Assembly (NCBI GenBank): GCA_005888745.1
Contig: VBBS01000030.1
Coordinates: 140,175-204,174 of the forward strand
DNA: 64,000 bases
Direction: 5' to 3'
Source: Candidatus Bathyarchaeota archaeon
GTDB lineage: Archaea > Thermoproteota > Bathyarchaeia > 40CM-2-53-6
In this document: positions 1,728-49,562 of the stretch, piece after piece
Layout: each line of letters opens with the position of its first letter
Position numbering within the stretch: the stretch's first letter is position 1
Made by a program: the position numbers and the translations under genes
The notes under the pieces: model-generated
What the model was told of the DNA's origin: nothing
What the model saw: the letters and a program-made list of their open reading frames with translations, nothing else
Databases searched by the model: none

Positions 1728-4700
1728 ATGTCGGACAAACGTTTTGTCCAAGGGTCCGGTATCAACGCTTTCAACGGAAATGAGCTGATAGTAAAGGGAG
1801 CGCTTGAGAGCAAGGTCGGCTTGATGGCCGGCTATCCTGGATCGCCTGTCGCAGAAGTTTTCACGATTCTAGAAGAGAACGCTGAGATTCTCAGAGAATG
1901 CGGCTTATGGGGAGAAATGACCAACGACGAGTCCCAAGGGGCTGCTGCGCTCAACGGCGCGTTGGATGTCGGCGTCAATGCGGTTGCTGTGATGAAGAGC
2001 GTCGGCCTCAACGTTGCTGCCGACCCTATCAATATCATCAATTATGCTGACAAGCTAGGCTTGAGCGGAAAGAGGGGCGGTGCCCTTGTTGTCTGCGGCG
2101 ACGACCCCCACGCTTCCAGTACGCAGGTTGCGGGTGATAGCCGCCAGCTTATGGAGCATCTCAAGATGGCGATTATCGAGCCGAGCACTCCGCAAGAGGT
2201 CAAGGACTGGATCGGAGAAGGACTCAGGCTCTCTCAGTACTCAAACCTGGTCGTAGGGTATCTCATTACCACTTACCTGGCCGAAGGCGGAGGTAGCGTT
2301 GTTCTATCAGAAAACCAGCCGTCGGAGATTACTTTCAAGAATCCGATTACCCTCGATATTTCAAAAGTTGATATCAAACGGAGAGTCAGTATCCCCCCGA
2401 ACACTTGGGATCTCGAGAAGGAGATTGTCAGAGATAGATTCCCGAAGGTCCATGAATATGTTCGCGATCATAAGCTCGACAAGATACTCTACGATGATGG
2501 TCGGAAGCACCGGATCGGATTCATCGCAGCCGGCATATCCTACAGCTATCTGGAACAGGCTCTCTGGGAACTCGGACTAGATGAACAATTTCCGATTCTG
2601 AAACCTGCCGTAACCTATCCACTTGAGCCCAACATCGTTGGCGAGTTATCAAAGAAAGCCGAGAATATTGTTGTTGTCGAAGAGAAGAGTCCAGCGATAG
2701 AGAACCAGGTCAAGACTATCCTCGATGACTTGGTCCAGGAAGGAAAACTCTCCAGCATGCCAAGGGTCTGGGGTAAATTCTTTCCTCAAGGCGATGGATT
2801 CCCGGAAGAGAGCGGCCTCACTCCTTCAAACCTAATCGAGAAAGTTGGAAACCTGCTCTTAGAGATCGGTGATCCTGCGGCCAAGATTGACCAGAAGAAG
2901 ATCCACAGCGAACTTGACCTGCTGGCTGAGATCAAAGCCTACGGGCTCCTGGTTCCTCCTCGCTCTCCAGGCTTCTGCGCCGGCTGCCCCCATCGGGAAA
3001 CCCTCAGCGCAGTTCATTCTCTAAGAGACACTCCTGAGCACAAAGACATCTTCGCGCACGGCGACATTGGATGCTATTCGATGTCTTTCCTTCCTCCCTT
3101 TGGTGAAATGCACAACCTAACGGCCATGGCGCTCGGTGGTGCTGCAGGAGCCGGGATGGACCCGTTCGTGACGAACAAGCAGTACGCGCTGATGGGCGAC
3201 TCCACGTTTTTCTGGAGAGGAATGACTGCAATCTCCAACTCGATCAAAGAAGGACAGGACATACTCTATCTCATTCTCGACAACAAGAACACTGCGATGA
3301 CAGGCCACCAACCTACACCGGAGTCAGGTCACAACCTGATGGGCGACAAGACAACCCCTCAGGACATCGAGAGCATCGTACGCGCTATGGGTCAGGGCCA
3401 GATCTACGTGAAAAAGATGCCCCCGTCCAACCGAGAGAAGTACATGAAAGAACTGGACAAGGTCTTCGAAAAACCCGGCGTCAAGGTCATAATAGCCGAC
3501 AAAGAGTGCGGCATCACATTTCACAAGAGAAAACGGTCAGAAAGAAACAGGATCATTGAGAGACAGGGTTTCATCAAGAAAGAGACATTCATCAACATAT
3601 CACAAGAAGTCTGCGAGAACTGCCGTGAGTGCACAAAGAACACTGGCTGCCCAGGACTAACGATAATCAACACTGACTATGGCGAGAAGATTGGGATTGA
3701 CCAGTCTATCTGCGTGTCCGACACCTATTGCACCAAGGTCATGGCTTGCCCTTCATTCGAGAAGGTAATAGTTACAAGAAACAGACCACCGAAATCACGA
3801 GTCAAGAAGATCTCGCTCGAAAATATTCCGCAGCCTGCTCCACACCGATTCAACGATACTTGGAAGATCTTCATCAGCGGCGTTGGCGGCATGGGGGTAG
3901 GTGTAATGTCGTCAGTTCTTGCTCGAGCCGGAACCAGAGAAGGATACCATGTCCGGTTCAACGATAAGAAAGGACTCGCAATCAGAAACGGAGCAGTTTC
4001 AGCTCACGTACTGTACTCGAATGGAAAAGCCAAGATCTCAACCATCGTCCCCAACGGCAAGGCGGATCTCTTGATGGGCGTCGACATGCTTGAAGCGGAG
4101 AGAAGTCTCGTATACGCGAGCCAAGTTCACACCACTGCAGTTGTCAACACCACGGTGGTCCCGACCATCCCGATGCTGGCAGGGATGATGAATTACCCTC
4201 CAGATGCGGAGCAGAATATTCGAAGATACACTAACTCCGACGAATATTTCGGTGGAAGACTTAGCGAGATCTCCGAACTGTATTTCGGAAGCAAGCTGTT
4301 CACCAACATGATTCTCTTGGGCGCGGCTTTCCAGAAAGGACTGATACCCGTCAGCGAACAGAACCTTATCGATGCAATTATGGAAACCGTACCTCCAAGC
4401 CAGCGAACTAGAAACATGGAAGCTCTACGCCTCGGACGAAAAATGGCCATCGAACCGGAGCTTCTGGAATTCAGGAACATTGTCGCCGATGACCGCATCC
4501 TTACTCTGTTTGGTGCGAAGGAAAGCTACCAGTCCGTTCTTGACATGAAGGCTAAGCAGCTCTCCCATTCCTACTGGATGTTCTGGCGTGGAAAGACGGT
4601 CGCAGACGAATACAGACGACTCGTTGAGAGCACCGTTGCCACGATGAGGCTCGATGAGGATACCAACAGAGCGATTGCCAGAAGAGTGTACGACCTCATA

Positions 4701-6076: not shown

Positions 6077-6805
6077 TTAGTAGTGCCTTACAAAGGTCTC
6101 AACTGGATGGACAAGCTCTAGCGATGGCTGGAGGTCCAATTGGAATAGCTCTCCAGACGGGGTCTTAGAGAATCCGTCCTCGCCTTTTCGAACTAGGTCG
6201 TCAACGATGGAGACTCGCCTCCTGATGTAGTCACTCTCATCAGCGGCCGGTAAGGGGCCGAAGACTTGCGGCGCGGCAAGTCGGACCGCGGCGTACATTG
6301 ACCATGCTAGATCCCGTATCTCCCACTGTGCGTCGGGAGCGCAGCGGAGATTGAAGAAGTGGATGAGCTGGCGCGGGCTCATGCTCATTACAATGTTCGT
6401 GGTTGCTGCATTGGGCCTGAGGTATCGGCTGTCTTCCGCTTTTATGCCTTTGGCAACGAGTCCTTCCTCGGCTTGACGCGTCAAGTCCATTACGTCTGTG
6501 AAGTTTAGGTCTATCTTGTGTCCCTGTATCTCAACTGGGACCTTGAGGTCATGGGGTATTCCGGGTGGTTTCAAGTATCCATAGCTTCGTGTGACGCGCA
6601 CATAACGTTGTGATTGCTGACTGAAGGAGGCGATTCTATGTCTTACAATCTGATGACTGGCTGCTCGGCTTATTCCCTGAAGGTCAAACGTGAGGCTCCC
6701 ATGCCGGAGCATGCTCTCTCCTCCCATCTTCACTCCGGCTTTCTCCAAGTTTCTGGTTAGCTCGGGATAGTTGGTGTAGCTGAACAGGATTGCTTTGCTT
6801 GCCAA
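6077..6805 (-). CDS. thyX: FAD-dependent thymidylate synthase ThyX, catalytic core with all signature motifs.
   Basis: RHRIASFSQQSQRY (the ThyX RHR...SxxQxSxRY signature) and a downstream NLRCAPDAQWEIR motif. Alignable to Thermotoga and Mycobacterium ThyX from the HG..EH region onward. Confidence 0.8.
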   Translation of the reverse strand: MASKAILFSYTNYPELTRNLEKAGVKMGGESMLRHGSLTFDLQGISRAASHQIVRHRIASFSQQSQRYVRVTRSYGYLKPPGIPHDLKVPVEIQGHKIDLNFTDVMDLTRQAEEGLVAKGIKAEDSRYLRPNAATTNIVMSMSPRQLIHFFNLRCAPDAQWEIRDLAWSMYAAVRLAAPQVFGPLPAADESDYIRRRVSIVDDLVRKGEDGFSKTPSGELFQLDLQPSLELVHPVETFVRHY

Positions 6806-6813
6806 TTCTCAAC

Positions 6814-7272
6814 CTAACTTCTTGTTGTCGATATCGCGAGTGCGGAGGCGATGATCGGGGCGGCTTCATTCAAGGTCCCGACAAGTTCTTTCGTTAATGG
6901 TAGGTCGCTGGGGCCTCGTGCTAGCTCGACTAGTACTCGTAGGTTTGTTGTGATGAGCCATCGCTGTTCGTCGATCTGGCTTGTCTCGAAAAACTTGGAT
7001 GATTCCATGAGGAAGAGGATCTCCTTTTCGTCAGCCTCCACTAGCCAGGTGATGCTGTTGTGCTCGAGAATATCGTAATGTCCCAGCTCAAGGGCACGCT
7101 TCAACAGTCCACCTATTCGCTCGGCGTCGAAGATTTTTTCCCCATCCAGCACCTTGTCTTGTGAGGTGTGCGTGAACAGTTCATATCCCGGATGGGGAGA
7201 ATAGCATGATCGCATGGCTGCGGCGCATACTCTTTCAAGGTCAGGCTCGTAGCCTACAAGGCGAACACGCAT
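6814..7272 (-). CDS. ThyX-like degenerate paralog. It has the ThyX N-terminal strand, the HxxxEH region and a C-terminal helix region, but lacks the RHR/SQRY catalytic motif. It lies 8 nt upstream of thyX in a different frame.
   Basis: MRVRLVGYEPDLERVCAAAMRSCYS aligns with the ThyX N-terminus. GHYDILEHNSITWLVEA aligns with GHFSVLEHASVSFYITG. The RHR motif is absent. Confidence 0.5.
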   Translation of the reverse strand: MRVRLVGYEPDLERVCAAAMRSCYSPHPGYELFTHTSQDKVLDGEKIFDAERIGGLLKRALELGHYDILEHNSITWLVEADEKEILFLMESSKFFETSQIDEQRWLITTNLRVLVELARGPSDLPLTKELVGTLNEAAPIIASALAISTTRS

Positions 7273-10810: not shown

Positions 10811-11479
10811 CTAGGTCGAGATCTGTGGGACTTTTACGGTTTCCTCTTCTTCCTCTTCCAGACGTGTCTTGATCCGTTTCAACCGGAAGAAGTCTTCTCT
10901 AGATCTCTCCTGTAAACTCATCTCGATGTACCGGATTGTGTTCTCGATTCTCGGGACGACAATGTTTTCTAGGCTGTTGACCCGTCTCTTGGTGGCGGAG
11001 ATTGCTTCAGCGAGTCTTCGAATGGCGGCTTCGGCCGCTGACAGCTCGACTACGTTCTTGATGGCTTCCGTCATTAGCGCGACTGCTTCATCGAGTTTGG
11101 CGCTGCTTCCGATCATGGAATATGGAAATCCTTCAAGAGCTTTCAGTTTTACCGAGACGTGGGGTATTGATACGCCGATGACGTTTCTGGTCGACGCGTC
11201 GACATCAAACCGATCCTGGGTTGTTAGCGATGTTTCCTCAACTCTATTGAAGCCCATGAGCATCTGGGCCTCGGTGAACTTCTCGTAAGCCTGGAACAAA
11301 AGGTCCTGCGTCTTCTGGCGTAGAGCGGTGATTTCGCGGGCGAACTGGAAGAACTCGATCATCAACGCGTCCAATTTCTCCCGTAACAGGTCTCCGCCTC
11401 TTTGTGCAATACGTCGTCGTCGCCGGAGGGCGATAAGCTCCATCCGGGTTGGACGAGCGCCCGCGACGACCTCCGACAC
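10811..11479 (-). CDS. atpD: A/V-type ATP synthase subunit D
   Basis: TRMELIALRRRRRIAQRGGDLLREKLDALMIEF is the canonical subunit D N-terminus. Protein is 222 aa. Confidence 0.85.
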   Translation of the reverse strand: MSEVVAGARPTRMELIALRRRRRIAQRGGDLLREKLDALMIEFFQFAREITALRQKTQDLLFQAYEKFTEAQMLMGFNRVEETSLTTQDRFDVDASTRNVIGVSIPHVSVKLKALEGFPYSMIGSSAKLDEAVALMTEAIKNVVELSAAEAAIRRLAEAISATKRRVNSLENIVVPRIENTIRYIEMSLQERSREDFFRLKRIKTRLEEEEEETVKVPQIST

Positions 11480-14007
11480 TACGAGGTCTTCCCACGATAT
11501 TTCGGATGATATTTCTTGATCGTAGCTGGGTCGATACGCTTCAGCTCGCTTTCAGGCAAGACACTAAGCAGATTCCAGCCAAGATCAAGGGTCGCATCGA
11601 TATCGCGATTCTCGTACAGCCCTTGATTGATGAACTTCTTCTCGAAACTGTCCGCAAAACCCAGGTAGAGCTTGTCTCGGGCAGAGAGAGCCTCTTCACC
11701 GATGACGGCGACGAGGTCACGGAAGCTTCGTCCCTCCGCATAGGCATAGTAGAGCTGGTCCGAGACTTCACGATGATCCTCTCGGGTCCGACCCTTTCCA
11801 ATACCCTCCTTCATCAACCGCGAGAGAGAGGGTGCAGGGTCGATAGGCGGGTAGATGCCTTTCCGGTGTAATCCTCGATCAATGTAGATCTGCCCCTCGG
11901 TGATATACCCGGTGAGGTCGGGGATGGGATGAGTCACATCATCCCCGGGCATTGTAAGAATCGGCATCTGCGTAATCGAGCCTTTACTACCATGAAGTCT
12001 TCCCGCTCTCTCATAGATTGTAGAGAGATCCGTATTGTGGAGAAGTAGAAGACCGCAGGCATCTACGAAGTTGTCGGATCCTTCAACGTCGATGTCGTAG
12101 ACCCACTCCTCTGTGGGTTCGACCTGCTCCATCTCTTTGATCTTTACACAGTCGGTGTCGTTTGGCGAGGCCGTTTGGCTTCTCACGAATGTCGAGAGGT
12201 AGACTTGGTGGGCTTTTCCTCCGACACCCGCGGGAGTGAGTGACGGTGACCGGTCAGGATACAGCGTACGACACGAGAAAATGAGATCGTCACGGAACCC
12301 CGGGCATATAGTAGTCATGCCGTATTGTTTCGTCTTGTACCGGGCGTTTTGCGAAAATCCGCTTCCATCATAGTACGTTTTGAAGAACGCCCCTCGGATT
12401 GGCCTTGGGGCAGAGAGAATGGCGCTGGGTATCCGTTTGTGGGAAGCTCGATGACCGCATCCCAGCGAGTCATTGAGAAAGTCGTACGCGTGTTTGCGTT
12501 GGGTTCCAACCCTCCAAGTTCCTGACCTCTTGTCACCGATCTGAATAGTAGGCGGGGCTCTTCCAAAGACACTTGTGTAGCATTCAGCTGAGTCATCGAT
12601 GAACTCTGTAGAGTTGTTGTTGATGAGAACTTGGTGTACCCATTTATCGTGCCTGCGACTGTACCACCGAGAGGAGTGACCTTCGGAAACGTAGTAGCCA
12701 AGGTATCTAGCAAGTTCCGGTGTTAGGGCAATCTGCCGATGGAACCGTTTCTTTACGCTTGGAATCTCAACAGTTTCCCTGGAAACCCGGTCCTCCGGGA
12801 TTTTCGCCACATGTGCGAGCGAGTCGCCAACTCCAAGCCGCCCAGCTTCCACAGCTGACAGTTGTCCGTCCTTGGCACTGAAGACGCTGTGGTTGGGAGT
12901 TACGATTGTTTCTCCGAGTTGCGTCTTGATGCGCGTAAGCCGACCTTTGTACGGGTGCCGAACAATATGTCTGACTGGGCGGAACCCGCTCCTGCCGTCG
13001 GTTGTCGTGGAGAGCGCGCACCATCCGTCGATCTTCTTCCTCTCTACGGTCCCATCGTTCTGGAGGGGACTTTCTATCATTTTGAAGAATTCGCTTAGAG
13101 AAACGATTCTAACTGAGCCTTCAGGATCTCGAAGGACAACTCTACGGCTTCCATCGACACTATACATGTAGCCAGGGTATCCTCGGCGTCCCGGAACTTC
13201 TTCTCTGGCTGCGGAAATTTCTCGGAGAGCTTCTGCATAGTTTGTCATGTCGGTAAGAATGACCAGGACGTGGGTTCCAAGTTTGACAGCGAAATATTCG
13301 GCGGCGGTAAGCGCCAACCTCGGAGTCAGTATTCGTTCGATGGCAGGGTCGTCGGCTAGGTTGACGAACATAGTTACGTGGTCGAAGGCGCCTTGTTTCT
13401 CGAAGTCGTCTCTGAAAAAGCGTGCTTCGTCTGCGGTGATTCCCATTGCTGCGAAGACCGTTGTGAACGGTTCGTCTGTGCCTCGGACCTTGGCTTGGCG
13501 GGCGATCTGAGCCGCGATTTGGTTGTGTGGCAGTCCGGATGCGGAGAATAGTGGGAGTTTCTGGCCTCGGACGAGTGTGTTCATTCCATCAATGGCGGAG
13601 ACGCCTGTTTGGATGAACTCTCTAGGATATTCGCGGGCGAAAGGGTTGATGGGGCTGCCGTTTACATCGAGATAATCGTCAGGGATGATTCTCGGACCGC
13701 CGTCAGTCGGTCGGCCGCTGCCGTCGAAGATCCGTCCGAGCATGTCCTGTGAGACGGGGAGTTTCACTGTTTCTCCGGTGAAACGAACAGTTGTTGCGGA
13801 AACGTCGAGTCCCGACGTTCCTTCGAAGATCTGGACGACTGCAACGCCGCCGCCAACTTCTAGGACTTGTCCTCTTCTTTCTTCGCCGCTTGGAGTCCTG
13901 ATTCGCGCTAGCTCGCCGTATCCTACTCCCCTTACCTGTTCGACGAAGATGAGGGGTCCGGATATTTCCCGTACTGTTCTATACTCGAGACCTGCGAGCG
14001 AGACCAT
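11479..14007 (-). CDS. atpB: A/V-type ATP synthase subunit B interrupted by an intein (842 aa precursor; about 466 aa of extein).
   Basis: The extein sequence ...[14 protein letters not shown] / [12 protein letters not shown] is contiguous in normal B subunits. The N- and C-terminal regions are typical of subunit B. Confidence 0.85.
12034..13161 (-). other. Intein in atpB (about 376 aa) with a LAGLIDADG homing endonuclease. Ser1 is the nucleophile, the C-terminus is HN, and the +1 residue is Thr.
   Basis: Starts [10 protein letters not shown] (block A). TPNHSV (block B). [11 protein letters not shown] and [22 protein letters not shown] motifs. Ends LLLHN / [11 protein letters not shown]. Junction codons were checked against the DNA. 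Confidence 0.75.
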
Positions 14008-14008
14008 T

Positions 14009-17000
14009 CTATTTCGCCTTGACGGCGGGCGCCTTTAGGCTCTGGAACTCTTGGTCGAGGCGCTCGTTCAAAGATTGGGAGTAGTCAGTGAACTTTTCCG
14101 CAGCAGTGAGTCTCATGCGGCTGATATCGTTCTTGACCGGCAGCTCGAGAACTTTCTGGAGTTGGATGTTTTCGTCGACTGCTTTCTGCATCAGGTTGTA
14201 GTAGTGGAGGATTGTACGTATCATATTGTAGGTCTTCGTCTTGTCGCAGTAACTGTCGGCGGGGTTGTAGGATTGCTGCATTAGGAAGTCTTCCTTGATC
14301 ATCTTCGCAGCTTCCAAGATAACCCGTTGTCCCTCAGACAGGGCGTCAGGACCGACGAGCATGACGATCTCGCGAAGCTCCTCATCGCGCTGGAGAAGAT
14401 ACATTGCTACTTTCCGCAAATCAACCCATTCTGGTCCAACTTCTTTCGGATACCAAGTCTCGAGAGTGTCCAGATAGAGAGAATAGCTCGTCAGCCAATT
14501 GATGGCGGGGAAGTGGCGTCTCTTGGCAAGCTCGGAGTCGAGAGCCCAGAAGACCTTGACTATCCGGAGGGTGTTCTGGGTTATTGGCTCTGAGAAGTCT
14601 CCCCCAGGCGGAGAAACAGCGCCGATGACACTGATCGAGCCTTGCTTGGATTCAGATCCCAGGACCTCTAGTCGTCCCGATCTTTCGTAAAAGTCGGCGA
14701 GGCGGGATGCAAGATATGCTGGGTAGCCTTCTTCACCAGGCATCTCCTCTAGACGACCGGATATCTCTCTGAGGGCTTCTGCCCATCTGCTTGTAGAATC
14801 TGCCATCAACGCGGTGTCGTAGCCCATGTCGCGGAAGTATTCTGCGATCGTGATACCTGTGTAGACGCTTGCTTCCCGAGCGGCGATGGGCATGTTCGAA
14901 GTGTTTGCGACTAGTGTCGTTCGGTTCATGAGCGGTTGTCCAGTGCGAGGATCGAGAAGTGTCGGGAATGTTTCAAGAACTTCCGCCATCTCATTTCCTC
15001 TCTCACCACAGCCAACATAAACGATGACTTGCGCGTCGGCGAATTTTGCCAAAGCCTGCTGGAGGACTGTATTGTGGCAGACCATAGGTCCCCATCCAGC
15101 GATGAAATTCTCGTAACCTGGGACCGTGATGTCGTAGACTTCAGAGCTGGTAGTGATTTGTCGGATTTCGGAAATCTCGTCGAAGAAAGAAAAGTCGGAT
15201 AATTCTGAGAGTTTCTCGAGCTTCTTCAGCGCTGTATTTTCGTTCGCGCCTGGCGCGGATTTGTCTTTGATTGCAGATATGAGGCGTCTGATTACTGTAA
15301 TGCCCGGTTTCTCTCCATGCGTTGTGTAGTTGTACATGTTGAAGCCAGATTTTCTCAGGCTCTTTCTTGATGTTTTACCAAGAGCTGCGGCCTCCGAAAG
15401 GACTGATGGGTCGATGGGGATGACGTCGACGTTGCTGTATCCTCGCTTGTCAAGCTTCAGGAAATGATCTATCTTCCTTAGGTATGGATACGGTCGTTGT
15501 TTCGGCAGAAATTGGTATAATTCGGAGATTGGTCGGCGTCCCTCAATACTCATGCGATGGTACGTGTGACCGCCGACTTCGCTGTGCCTTATTCTATGCA
15601 GCACTCCCAACCTTGTCAGCAGATAGGAAATTCCGAGGGCCATCTCCTCACTTGCAGTGGAGATCTCTAGAGTACCTTTGCTGAAGGATCCATCGCCGGC
15701 GATGTACCCTGCGAAGAATCCTCCGATCACCTTGTCCGGGGACATTGAGACAAGGTCCGGAACCCCTAGTGTGCGAGATTTCTTCTTCTTGGGGAACCCG
15801 ATACCGACCAGTAGATGGACCAGCGCTCTGCTGTCGATTTGAGCCAACAATCCTCCACTGTGCGTCCCGCGACGAGGGGTCAAACCAAACAGGTCGTTCG
15901 CTAGCCGGGAGAATCTGCGGAGTACCTGCTTGTCATTATTGAACAGGATAACCCTTCCCCGTCCTCGAAGCATGCCGTCAGAGAGGATTAGTCCGAGAAA
16001 CTCTGCCAGTTCCAGCGTCATTTCCTTGGGGAGTTTTATGCTCCAGCCTTGTCGCTGAGCTCTGACGGACCCAACCGGAATCTTCTTACCTGTGGCCTTT
16101 GCAAGGCGCCTCAAGAAGCCGAGAGTGGGCCTCGCCCTTCTTCTCCAACAGTTCAGGAGACTCTTGTAGCTCACATCGAGGTTCCTCGCAAGGACTTTGA
16201 GGGCCATATCCGCTGTCAGGCTCTCTATGGTTGCGACCATCATCCTGATGGCTTTGGGATCGTCGACTCTGGTGTCGTCAGGTAGGAGTTTGTAAGGGTC
16301 GATCGGTTTCTGATCTAGACTGAGTGCGATCTTTCTTGGTGTTAGAAGGTATGCTCCGGGCCGGAGTAGTTTGGCAGAGGTCTCTTCTATTGTGCCGTCG
16401 CGGCGTAGTTGCTGGAGCTTGTGAACAGGGGTGACCCTTACCCTGCGCCCGCTGCGGGTCTGAATTTCGAGCAGTTCATTGGTGGACCCTTTGTAGCCCA
16501 TTGAGGCCTCGGCCTTTGTGAACTCGGGGTTGGATAGGGATACAACTCTAGGAGGGTTGGAATAAGAATAGAGAGTCTCATCTCCGTTGTCATCGAAGGC
16601 CTGCGAATTCCCATTATCTCGCACAAGCTCTCGGATTCTCCTTATCCTGCCATCAGCAAGCAGGACGGGAGTCTCTCCGTCCATGCACTTTCCACTTCCG
16701 AACGGTCCGGGAACGGCTGCTGTTCCGCCTTTGGCGACGGGGAAGAAGAAGTCGATGATGCGTTGGCCAGTTATGAGTGGGATTTCGGACGGGAGCTTGC
16801 GTTTGAAGGGCCTGGCGATTCGTACGGGCCAGGTGTGCATCATGAACAATGAGACGGGTCCCGTCTTGGTCTCCAGTTCACCGATCGGCTCGGTGATCGT
16901 ATAGTCGCCTTCTGGGACGATTGAGATGATCTTTCCGGACTGGTTTGGCGGGACCATTATCCGCTGCGTGATCAGGGTTGTCTCTTTGACAGTCCCTAGA

Positions 17001-17410
17001 ACATCACCACCGGAAACCTCTACTCCTCTATCCGCGGTTGGTACGAAGTGCCACTTTTTTGATCGGTCGATCGCGGCAGGGGCAAGGCCTCTTTTGATGA
17101 AGGGTCCAGTCTTTTCAAAAAGAACTGTTAGTGGGCGTTGGATCCCGTCATAGATCTGGCCTAGGATCCCGGGTCCGAGCTCGACGGACAGTGGTTTGCC
17201 TGTGCGTTCTACTTTTTCGCCGGGTCGGAGGCCGGCGGTTTCCTCGTAGACTTGGACTGTGGCGTTTTCGCCGTCTATCTTGATGATCTCGCCGATGAGG
17301 CCTAGGTCGCCGACGCGGACGACTTCGTGCATTTGGGCGCCTAGCATTCCTTCGGCGACAATGACGGGGCCCGCGACCCGTGCGACTTTTCCAGGCTTGA
17401 AGTCAGGCAT
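14009..17410 (-). CDS. atpA: A/V-type ATP synthase catalytic subunit A interrupted by an intein (1133 aa precursor; 594 aa of extein).
   Basis: The P-loop GPFGSGK is followed directly by the intein. The extein resumes [29 protein letters not shown]- and C-terminal domains are typical of subunit A. Confidence 0.9.
15071..16687 (-). other. Intein in atpA (539 aa) inserted in the P-loop at the classical VMA/AtpA-a site, with a LAGLIDADG endonuclease. The N-terminal boundary is good to within 1-2 nt.
   Basis: [13 protein letters not shown] (block A, Cys1). TPVHKL (block B). [14 protein letters not shown] and [21 protein letters not shown] motifs. Ends WGPMVCHN / TVLQQ. The C-terminal junction was checked against the DNA. 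Confidence 0.8.
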
Positions 17411-17525
17411 TGAAACGTGACCTTGGGAGTGATGAAGGGTCGAGTTTCTGGCCGGTTGTCATTAAAACCTTCCTCGTTACAGCATTGGTTACGCCAACCT
17501 CATAGCCAACGGCTGGGGTGGACGC

Positions 17526-18158: not shown

Positions 18159-18351
18159 CTATCCTAAGCTCTTAGACAAATCATGACATCTAAGCCTTCG
18201 AATCAGAGGAAGCTCTGAAGGTCATCGCCTCCCTGCCCCAATGACACCCTAGACCAAGCATTAGACCGTACCCTCAAATGGCAAAAGAGGAATACGATAC
18301 TTCGGTTCTGTAAACTCTTCGGTTGCTTTTTTTGGGTGATAGCTTCGGCCA

Positions 18352-18701
18352 CCTCTAACTGTAATGTTCAAGGAACGCCTGATTATTACATTAGGCGGTC
18401 GTCGTATGAGCCTGTCACACTGGGATGAGGGGAGTGACTCCGACCACGTGACAGGTCTAAATTTGGATGGCCGGTTCGCTGGCCACCGTAACATCCCTGC
18501 CTGGCAACGGGCCAAGCTACCACGCTATGGGCGTGAGGGGGCGGTTGAGGTTCGACCGTTCCCTGCCAAAAAGAGACTACTCGTCTCTGAGGCGCAAGGG
18601 CTCTCAGGTGAAGCAATGAACGGGAACTCGATGACGACGGTAATCCCCGGAGTCGATGAGAGCAAGCCAAGTCCTCGAGCAACCGAAGACTTGACAGAAC
18701 C
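18352..18701 (+). repeat. Copy 1 of a roughly 350-nt structured repeat, probably a non-coding RNA or MITE-like element. It runs from ctctaactgtaatgttcaagg to gacagaacc.
   Basis: Roughly 85% identical (estimated by eye) to the reverse complement of 48749..49098 over its full length, and to 24765..24843 over its 3-prime 80 nt. Differences cluster in hairpin loops or are compensatory, for example gagacTACTCgtctc versus gagacTATGTgtctc. Confidence 0.6.
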
Positions 18702-18828
18702 GAGAACGTTAACCAAGGGGGTGGGAGGGGGAGGCCCATGTCTGCCCTGAGTGGTTCCACGGGATTCCACGCGTGGAGCGGTGATAAGACCGGTCGATTT
18801 CTTCGATAAGATCATGATCTTGGTTTAG

Positions 18829-46988: not shown

Positions 46989-47022
46989 GCTCGAGCATTC
47001 GGATGTGAGATTTTGGAGCCCC

Positions 47023-47108
47023 GGATGGGGGTTGAACCCATGACCTACGGCTTTTTTGGCATTTACAAAGCCGTCGCTCTACCACTGAGCTACCGGGGCA
47101 GGCATGGA
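47023..47108 (-). tRNA. tRNA-Thr (anticodon TGT) with an 11-nt intron in the anticodon loop. CCA is encoded.
   Basis: GCCCCGG-TA-GCTCAGTGGTAGAGC-G-ACGGC-[TTTGTA + intron AATGCCAAAAA + A]-GCCGT-AGGTC-ATGGGTTCAACCCCCAT-CCGGGGC-T-CCA. Confidence 0.65.
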
Positions 47109-48748: not shown

Positions 48749-49098
48749 GGTTCTGTCAAATCCTCGGTTGCTCAAGGACTTGGCTTGCTCTCATCGACTC
48801 CGGGGATTACCGTCGTCGTCGGGTTCCCCTTCATTGCTTCACCCGAGAGCCCTTGCGCCATAGAGACACATAGTCTCTTCTTGGCAGGGAACGGTCGAAC
48901 CTCAACCGCCCCCTCACGCCCGTAGCGTGGTAGCTTGGCCCCTCGCCAGGCAAGGATTTTACAGTAGCCAACCAACCAGATATCCCGTTTCAGACCAGTC
49001 ACGTGGTCGGAGTCACTCCCCTCATCCCACTGTGACAAGCTCATACGACGACCGCCTAATCTGATAATCAGTCATTTCTTGAACATTACAATTAGAGA
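48749..49098 (-). repeat. Copy 3 (full length, inverted) of the roughly 350-nt structured repeat
   Basis: The reverse complement aligns end to end with 18352..18701 (roughly 85% identity by eye), with loop-localised and compensatory substitutions. Confidence 0.6.
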
Positions 49099-49155
49099 TG
49101 GACGAATCTATCACCAAACAACAAGCGAAGAGTTGAGTGTCGCGCAGACCAAGCC

Positions 49156-49419: not shown

Positions 49420-49429
49420 CTGAAGTAGT

Positions 49430-49562
49430 GCCGAGGGAGGGATTCGCACCCTCGATCTCCGGGAAGCTTTCTCTCTCCGGAATCCACCCTAGCCCAGGAT
49501 TATGAGTTTCACCCTCGCGGAGGGCGAGCCCGGCGCCTTAACTAGGCTAGGCCACCCCGGCG
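49430..49562 (-). tRNA. tRNA with a long (about 58 nt) intervening sequence between the anticodon-stem strands. The anticodon was not resolved (possibly xGC). No encoded CCA.
   Basis: Acceptor GCCGGGG/CCTCGGC (one G-U). D-arm GCCT-AGCCTAGTTA-AGGC. Anticodon stem CCGGG...CCCGG. T-arm GAGGG-TGCGAAT-CCCTC. Discriminator A. Confidence 0.45.

Follow-up and report, generated by a model that had tools for sequence, protein, structure and literature searches.

We describe two inteins that interrupt a single ATP synthase operon on a 64,000-nt stretch of DNA (hereafter the window) from a soil Candidatus Bathyarchaeota archaeon (assembly GCA_005888745.1, contig VBBS01000030.1, positions 140,175-204,174). 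One lies in atpA (14009..17410; 1133 aa including the intein), which encodes the catalytic subunit A of an A1AO/V-type ATP synthase, and the other in the adjoining atpB (11479..14007; 842 aa including the intein), which encodes the non-catalytic subunit B; both genes were identified from their open reading frames (ORFs) and Pfam content, which for AtpA comprises the ATP-synt_ab_N, Xtn, ATP-synt_ab and VA_C domains. Coordinates are those of the window, and the operon, the features within it and the possible TATA box before it lie on the (-) strand. Our preferred reading, to which we assign a probability of roughly 0.88, is that these are two unrelated class 1 inteins in paralogous A and B subunits, both maturing by canonical splicing, the A intein being a homing element and the B intein a fixed one with a decaying endonuclease.

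Boundaries of the inteins and the spliced subunits

The computed boundaries place a 539-aa intein in AtpA (aa 242-780; 15071..16687; Cys1...His-Asn/Thr+1), with the junctions GPFGSGK/CMDGE...MVCHN/TVLQQ, where a slash marks a splice site, and a 376-aa intein in AtpB (aa 283-658; 12034..13161; Ser1...His-Asn/Thr+1), between GYPGYMY and TDL, with the junctions GYPGYMY/SVDGS...LLLHN/TDL. The ORFs, lengths and boundaries given in an earlier, preliminary description of this DNA were thereby reproduced to the residue. The Pfam Intein_splicing model matches inside both inserts, at 64.9 bits in AtpA and 50.1 bits in AtpB against a cutoff of 35.8, and in AtpB the ATP-synt_ab domain is split at position 143 of the 213 in the profile. 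When the inteins are excised, the spliced subunit A (594 aa) aligns in a single stretch, gap-free at the junction, to the A-ATPase subunit A of Pyrococcus horikoshii (1vdz_A, E 1e-252), and the spliced subunit B (466 aa) does likewise to subunit B of Methanosarcina mazei (2rkw_A, E 3e-204). Moreover, the uninterrupted junctions are found in intein-free homologues, as GSGKTVLQQ in the atpA of the relative L004 and as GYPGYMYTDL in the AtpB protein P0162.

Each insert thus interrupts a conserved host motif in frame, and its excision restores a contiguous host protein, as is characteristic of class 1 inteins; both also have the residues of blocks A, B, F and G. The A intein has Cys1 as its residue-1 nucleophile and VTPVH as its block B T-x-x-H, with blocks F and G reading VYDITV...MVCHN/T; the B intein has Ser1, VTPNH and VYDIDV...LLLHN/T, so that the penultimate His, terminal Asn and +1 Thr are common to the two. 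Both precursor genes recur in two independent metagenome assemblies (L001 and L002) with 0 and 1 mismatches over 6.6 kb, and the interrupted genes are therefore real rather than an artefact of assembly.

The A-subunit insertion falls between GSGK and T of the P-loop, directly before the Thr of GxxGxGKT, which is the position that defines the archaeal VMA-b site (PMC8966425). The intein is also homologous to the solved Tli and Pho VMA inteins (7qss, 7qsu and 7qst; E 5e-50, for 7qss, to 3e-34). It is a classical archaeal VMA-b allele, in agreement with the preliminary description, which had called A-subunit inteins classical, and NCBIfam already holds an intein-containing equivalog model for AtpA (NF011287). 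With TliVMA and PhoVMA it shares the P-loop site GSGK/T, the Cys1...His-Asn/Thr+1 termini and an architecture of Hint plus LAGLIDADG domains. It differs from them in its length (539 aa as opposed to 376-429 aa), in extra segments at about aa 121-211 and 415-500, and in its host, which is a mesophilic Bathyarchaeote of soil where theirs are Thermococcales. The extra segment between the N-terminal splicing domain and the endonuclease (16082..16261), which has no alignment to TliVMA, is possibly a helix-turn-helix accessory DNA-binding domain; a relative, P0285, gives a match to Pfam HTH_3, and accessory domains of VMA-b inteins have been described (PMC8966425). Like the Saccharomyces VMA1 intein (Sce VMA1, PI-SceI), it is a LAGLIDADG intein in the catalytic subunit of a V/A-type ATPase; unlike PI-SceI, it does not occupy the VMA-a site (YVG/CGERGNEM), which is uninterrupted in the AtpA of the window.

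The endonuclease of the A intein appears complete. Pfam LAGLIDADG_3 matches it at 57-60 bits, and alignment to 7qss together with reading of the motifs finds the catalytic Asp in both motif 1 (LILSDG; 15968..16009) and motif 2 (IAGDG; 15683..15718). Two sister species lack the intein in atpA, L004 with A exteins 98.5% identical in protein sequence to those of the window and L006 with 96.6%. Among related organisms, many AtpA fragments do carry it at 80-90% identity, and a further clade has it at about 50%. Some related AtpA inteins have partly lost their endonuclease, through a deletion in P0281 and through Asp-to-Gly and Gly-to-Arg changes in the motifs of P0283. This pattern of presence, absence and decay fits what is expected of a homing element. 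Around the atpA insertion site, mismatch density against the intein-free L004 and L006 is flat at about 12%; as these are different species, the comparison says nothing on a co-conversion tract.

Splicing chemistry and relatives of the B-subunit intein

The splicing motifs of the B intein can be followed along its whole length. Block A (SVDGSR; 13126..13161) begins with the Ser1 codon at 13159-13161, and its S1, V2, D3 and R6 are invariant in the 14 aligned alleles; R68-H69, equally invariant, forms the NX motif VRHPYKG (12943..12963) about 20 residues upstream of block B, the N3 motif (12880..12915), where T88-x-x-H91 is again unchanged in all 14. Blocks F and G (12034..12105), placed by the allele alignment, lead to the Thr+1 codon at 12031-12033. 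In total the splicing residues S1, R68-H69, T88, H91, D356, H375 and N376, with Thr+1 of the extein, do not vary across the 14 AtpB alleles.

An NX motif of [R/K]-His is the signature of Ser1/Ser+1(Thr+1) inteins and was required for splicing in three of them (Pasch et al. 2023, PMC10189870). InBase lists 58 such inteins in 16 alleles, and PI-TkoII and the MjaTFIIB intein are structurally characterised Ser1 examples (PMC10189870). The AtpB intein has the Ser1, Thr+1, Arg-His NX motif and N3 His of this oxyester sub-type, and it is, on its residues, a regular class 1 intein of the Ser1 or 'cysteine-independent' kind. The statement of the preliminary description that this intein uses Ser1 and Thr+1 was thus borne out; the chemistry is nonetheless an already established one, there is nothing mechanistically new in it, and our understanding of how inteins work is unchanged by either intein. 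When compared with other 'cysteine-independent' class 1 inteins (Psp Pol-1, MjaTFIIB and PolB16 OarG), the AtpB intein has the same Ser1, Thr+1, N3 His and R68-H69. It differs in representing a new host protein and allele, in containing non-catalytic Cys residues and in being contiguous rather than split.

From these residues it is possible to predict how both proteins would mature. Each precursor would be translated whole and would then pass through the four canonical steps of protein splicing. The first would be an acyl shift at residue 1, from N to S at Cys1 in the A intein and from N to O at Ser1 in the B intein, in the latter case assisted by His69 of the NX motif and by T88 and H91 of block B. 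Transesterification onto the hydroxyl of Thr+1 would follow, after which the terminal Asn would cyclise with the assistance of the penultimate His, and an O-N shift would finally leave subunit A with GSGK-T and subunit B with GYMY-T. With one insert interrupting the P-loop of subunit A and the other the nucleotide-binding core of subunit B, the unspliced precursors are expected to be non-functional, which would explain the strict conservation of the splicing residues. The preliminary description had called GYPGYMYTDL a catalytic-region insertion; the site itself stands, and the wording is better given as the core of the nucleotide-binding domain, since subunit B is non-catalytic. We also considered that the insertion adjoins the arginine finger of subunit B, and dropped the idea since, judging from F1 alpha-R373 and V1 B subunits, that residue presumably lies within the later HRKGIYPPI segment.

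A profile of the AtpB intein compared with the PDB gave PI-PkoII (6e-38) and the MjaTFIIB intein (4e-27) as its two best matches, with VMA inteins at about 1e-12. Likewise, hhalign between the AtpB alleles and the pol-c inteins of DPANN family B DNA polymerases (PolB) returned a probability of 100% (E 1.9e-40, 29% identity over 341 columns), and the aligned region spans both splicing halves and the endonuclease. These DPANN inteins were recovered in our genome scan with the junctions YGD/S...LLHN/TDS, which is the pol-c site. The same-operon AtpA intein, when compared by BLASTP, reached only 3e-5 and matched through blocks F and G alone. As the match to the AtpA intein is weak and those to pol-c and PI-PkoII are strong, derivation of the B intein from its neighbour was ruled out, and it is no copy of the A intein. 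It belongs, by similarity, to the Ser1 lineage of PolB and TFIIB inteins, with PolB pol-c (PI-PkoII) as its closest relatives. A search by HMMER of 1.84 billion representative proteins found one other full-length AtpB with the same intein (P0009, 45% identity), and the next-best matches that were checked were inteins in family B DNA polymerases, followed by those in MCM, Top6A and DegT-family proteins.

The AtpB intein has in common with PI-PkoII/PI-TkoII of Thermococcus kodakarensis (2cw7) and with the DPANN pol-c inteins its Ser1, its Arg-His NX motif, a GET.VT..HS block B, the LGYYVSEG and GDG LAGLIDADG motifs and Thr-Asp at +1. It is nevertheless distinct from them in host gene and site (GYMY/TDL in AtpB as opposed to YGD/TDS in PolB), in size (about 360-376 aa among AtpB inteins and 420-537 aa among the others) and, in the copy of the window, in having Ser for the motif-2 Asp. 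Identity with the pol-c allele itself was ruled out, the host being AtpB and the site GYMY/TDL rather than YGDTDS. Since both sites have Thr-Asp at +1 and +2, it is reasonable to infer that an intein moved ectopically from pol-c to atpB, whose intein-less target site, when reconstituted, reads CGAGGATACCCTGGCTACATGTAT/ACGGATCTCTCTACAATCTATGAG.

Distribution, inheritance and endonuclease state

An intein at the same AtpB site was found in 15 of 185,579 species genomes of GTDB (one genome per species), and this number is a lower bound, as the scan used two peptide patterns. All have the form SVD.../...HN/TDL, always with Ser1 and Thr+1. The carriers comprise three Bathyarchaeota, four or five Thermoplasmata or Methanomassiliicoccales, four Woesearchaeota together with two differently binned or unnamed contigs whose exteins are Woesearchaeota-like, and an Iainarchaeum with a relative. 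One contig of 6 kb (L013, JBBIJD010000081.1), binned as the bacterial 'Candidatus Fraserbacteria', carries an archaeal atpB with the intein and is probably misbinned. The closest relatives are three soil metagenome-assembled genomes (MAGs; L004-L006, 87-89% identity), labelled as Bathyarchaeota or as 'Crenarchaeota archaeon 13_1_40CM'. The preliminary description had judged an intein in subunit B to be rarer than one in subunit A, and both this count and NCBIfam, which has an intein-containing model for A and none for B, bear it out. In three of the AtpB-intein lineages the P-loop of atpA is interrupted as well (L011 and L020, with a mini-intein in L012), and in five it is not; an A-B pair with both inteins is accordingly uncommon and not unique. 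In L012 (Euryarchaeota RBG_16_67_27, a Thermoplasmata-like MAG) the apparent mini-intein, of about 170 aa, lies in atpA at 3587-4133, next to a full-length atpB intein.

The identity matrices of inteins and exteins are broadly congruent by clade, and because they cluster alike, inheritance within clades has been mostly vertical. When the window is compared with L004-L006, synonymous divergence (dS) is 0.66-0.74 for the intein and 0.62-1.19 for the exteins; this equality indicates that the AtpB intein predates the split of the four Bathyarchaeota species from their common ancestor. The ratio of non-synonymous to synonymous substitution (dN/dS) in the same comparison is about 0.09 for the intein (0.07-0.10 for its endonuclease part) and 0.004-0.014 for the exteins. 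Judged from these alignments, the intein is inherited vertically and under purifying selection within this Bathyarchaeota clade. The best intein-free matches come from a sister clade of soil Bathyarchaeota, whose AtpB proteins are 465 aa long and 88-90% identical.

One case departs from this congruence. In the metagenome fragment P0008, an AtpB N-extein of Thermoplasmata type, 86% identical to P0009, runs into an intein N-terminus of which the 40 residues covered are 80% identical to the Bathyarchaeota-type intein of the window. Either the intein crossed between phyla, or the fragment is a chimera assembled across the conserved GYPGYMY motif. Cross-phylum transfer between alleles was consequently set aside as a general account, the matrices being congruent and P0008, the sole discordant case, being short and perhaps chimeric.

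Two states of the endonuclease meet in this operon. The A intein has an acidic residue at the end of each LAGLIDADG motif (SDG and GDG); in the B intein, motif 1 (block C; 12676..12714) retains its catalytic Glu160 by alignment to PI-PkoII, with E160, G161 and H162 invariant in 14 alleles, and motif 2 (block E; 12355..12390) has lost its Asp, which is replaced by Ser267 (AGC codon, 12361-12363). Blocks C and E are thus both intact in A, and only block C is intact in B. The preliminary description had read LAGLIDADG motifs in both inteins, and this holds for A through Pfam LAGLIDADG_3; that model gives no match in the AtpB intein, where the domain is supported instead by the PI-PkoII profile match with both motifs aligned, albeit without the motif-2 Asp. 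All 15 other alleles (YYxGDG) and PI-PkoII have G-D-G where the window has G-S267-G, and Ser is unique among the 16. The change from the GAY codon of L004-L006 to AGC involves two bases. It is not a sequencing error, since the L001 and L002 assemblies of this population have the identical AGC codon.

The PhoVMA endonuclease has been shown by experiment to be inactive because its active-site aspartates are missing, and restoring the aspartates rescues its activity (PMC8966425). Given this precedent and the loss of the motif-2 Asp, the endonuclease of the AtpB intein in the window is probably disabled and no longer a double-strand homing nuclease. In our preferred reading the two inteins would therefore stand at different stages of the homing cycle. 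The A intein, with both LAGLIDADG acids intact and polymorphic among congeners, would still be cycling by homing. The B intein, whose site is specific to AtpB and lies within the nucleotide-binding core, would have been present in the ancestor of the four Bathyarchaeota and vertically inherited since, and its loss of one of two catalytic acids would correspond to the degeneration that follows fixation.

Several damaged or unusual atpB products were encountered among the relatives. A near-identical relative, P0160, has a 49-residue in-frame deletion covering endonuclease blocks D and E. P0161, also near-identical, has lost intein residues ~16-126 and with them the NX motif and block B, and should for that reason be unable to splice; a third near-identical gene, P0007, is frameshifted past block B. 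The damage in these three entries, all of them from other samples, may reflect real variants in decay or artefacts of short-read assembly. In another lineage, the 704-aa AtpB P0159 has no intein and an internal tandem duplication of about 240 residues, which is probably an assembly artefact.

We found no description of a B-subunit intein in the full-text literature, a search that lay outside subscription journals and InBase and leaves its undescribed status provisional. In its main tables, a survey of inteins gives 12 cases for V-ATPase subunit A and does not list subunit B (Novikova et al. 2016, PMC4760082). Provisionally, then, AtpB is a new host, with a new insertion site, for a known type of intein. 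The A subunit of V/A-type ATPases is the founding intein host in catalogues and curated models, in which the B subunit is not listed, and a recurrent, site-specific B intein in Bathyarchaeota, Thermoplasmata and DPANN adds to that inventory. It also offers a reason why some archaeal atpB genes are about 840 codons long or called as 'hypothetical protein' fragments, database copies of intein-bearing AtpB being either labelled 'hypothetical protein' or miscalled as fragments. Furthermore, the operon offers a snapshot of the homing cycle, with an intact and polymorphic element in A beside a fixed element with a decaying endonuclease in B, and the AtpB intein is a mesophilic representative of the Ser1/Thr+1 sub-type that is sought for cysteine-independent protein ligation tools.

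Competing explanations

Several observations weigh against our interpretation, or at least against parts of it. Structure prediction for the AtpB intein (AlphaFold2, from 11 sequences) gave an unusable model (predicted local distance difference test score 41, predicted template modelling score 0.24), and the fold of the intein is accordingly assigned by sequence and profile homology. The reconstructed AtpB and pol-c target DNAs share only 11 of 24 central bases, which is at most suggestive, and the putative move from pol-c to atpB is proposed from the similarity of the inteins. All alleles come from MAGs, and their taxonomic labels may be wrong, as with the contig binned to 'Candidatus Fraserbacteria'. 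In addition, the AtpB endonuclease domain is still under purifying selection (dN/dS 0.07-0.10), unlike a long-dead domain; Ser267 may have arisen recently, folding or splicing may require the domain, or the enzyme may have kept a nicking activity.

This last point is also an argument for an endonuclease that is still active in B, as a nickase or through Ser267 or the neighbouring Asp265, in an element still mobile in the population. Glu160, the Lys-Arg-Ile-Pro block D and most invariant endonuclease residues are intact, and P0008 hints at cross-phylum transfer. We nevertheless consider this unlikely, as all 15 other alleles keep Asp at 267, Asp265 also occurs in relatives that retain Asp267 and is therefore not compensatory, experiment has shown PhoVMA to be inactivated when its active-site Asp is lost (PMC8966425), and the evidence of P0008 comes down to 40 intein residues in a possible chimera across a highly conserved junction. 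A more sweeping alternative takes both interrupted genes for pseudogenes in decay or for products of chimeric assembly, with ATP made by another enzyme. In its favour, no further A1AO subunit gene occurs among the 25 ORFs of the 64-kb window scanned with Pfam, and damaged related entries do exist (P0161 without block B, P0007 frameshifted). Both ORFs are however intact and match in three assemblies, extein dN/dS is 0.004-0.014, all splicing residues are conserved and atpA, atpB and atpD are translationally coupled, all of which makes this alternative very hard to credit.

It might also be proposed that splicing of one or both inteins is conditional and serves as regulation, in which case a reaction responsive to redox, temperature or pH would decide, after translation, whether the A3B3 head can assemble; the inteins, lodged in the P-loop of subunit A and in the core that binds nucleotide in subunit B, would prevent this until removed. 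The purifying selection on the B intein, endonuclease included (dN/dS ~0.09), and its vertical retention across four species are compatible with such a role, as are the inteins in both A and B of three other lineages (L011, L012 and L020); inteins are known to be concentrated in ATPase domains, which a 'panic button' hypothesis seeks to explain (PMC4760082). There is, however, no sign of conditionality. Constraint on the splicing residues would be expected in any case, a non-splicing intein in an essential gene being lethal, most relatives are without one or both inteins, and the patchy distribution and decaying endonucleases fit the dynamics of a selfish element. Regulation by conditional splicing thus seems improbable. 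We give similarly little weight to a variant in which a Ser1 pol-c intein jumped ectopically into atpB, by way of the shared Tyr-x-x/Thr-Asp, and was then retained for a reason at the level of the host, as part of a conditional, post-translational gate on ATP synthase biogenesis. Were this so, A3B3 assembly would require both a thiol-based, redox-sensitive splicing reaction in A and an independent, oxyester-based one in B.

Operon context and other features of the window

Downstream of the two interrupted genes lies atpD (10811..11479; 222 aa, GTG start), which encodes the central-stalk subunit D (Pfam ATP-synt_D, E 6e-56). The ATG of atpB is 1 nt past the atpA stop codon and the GTG of atpD overlaps the atpB stop by 1 nt, an arrangement in which atpA-atpB-atpD is, on sequence, a translationally coupled operon. 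A TTTTAAT sequence noticed on inspection about 54 nt upstream of the atpA ATG (17461..17467) is a possible archaeal TATA box and could be a candidate atpA promoter. The gene immediately upstream of atpA belongs to the SLOG family and is divergently oriented, with unrelated genes beyond it. No ATP synthase subunit besides A, B and D was found among the 25 ORFs scanned with Pfam, which included all those longer than 600 aa together with small hydrophobic or highly charged candidates, and to that extent the A-B-D content given in the preliminary description holds.

The window also contains a repeat of about 390 nt in two copies of opposite orientation and 87-88% identity, at ~18310-18700 (+) and ~48750-49134 (reverse). 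The first is about 900 nt upstream of atpA and the second adjoins a tRNA gene; the repeat overlaps an ORF at 18364-18750, and Rfam gives it no match at its gathering threshold. Across the whole window, Rfam found two tRNAs and nothing else. One of these matches, at 49429-49561 (-), is 133 nt long against a model of 71 positions, which suggests an intron-containing archaeal tRNA gene, and the other, at 47017-47099, is 83 nt long. Finally, two adjacent ORFs on the same (-) strand, at 6077-6805 (242 aa) and 6814-7272 (152 aa), each match Pfam Thy1 (ThyX); this arrangement is repeated in L001 and L002, and the two ORFs may be one gene that has been split or two genes in tandem.

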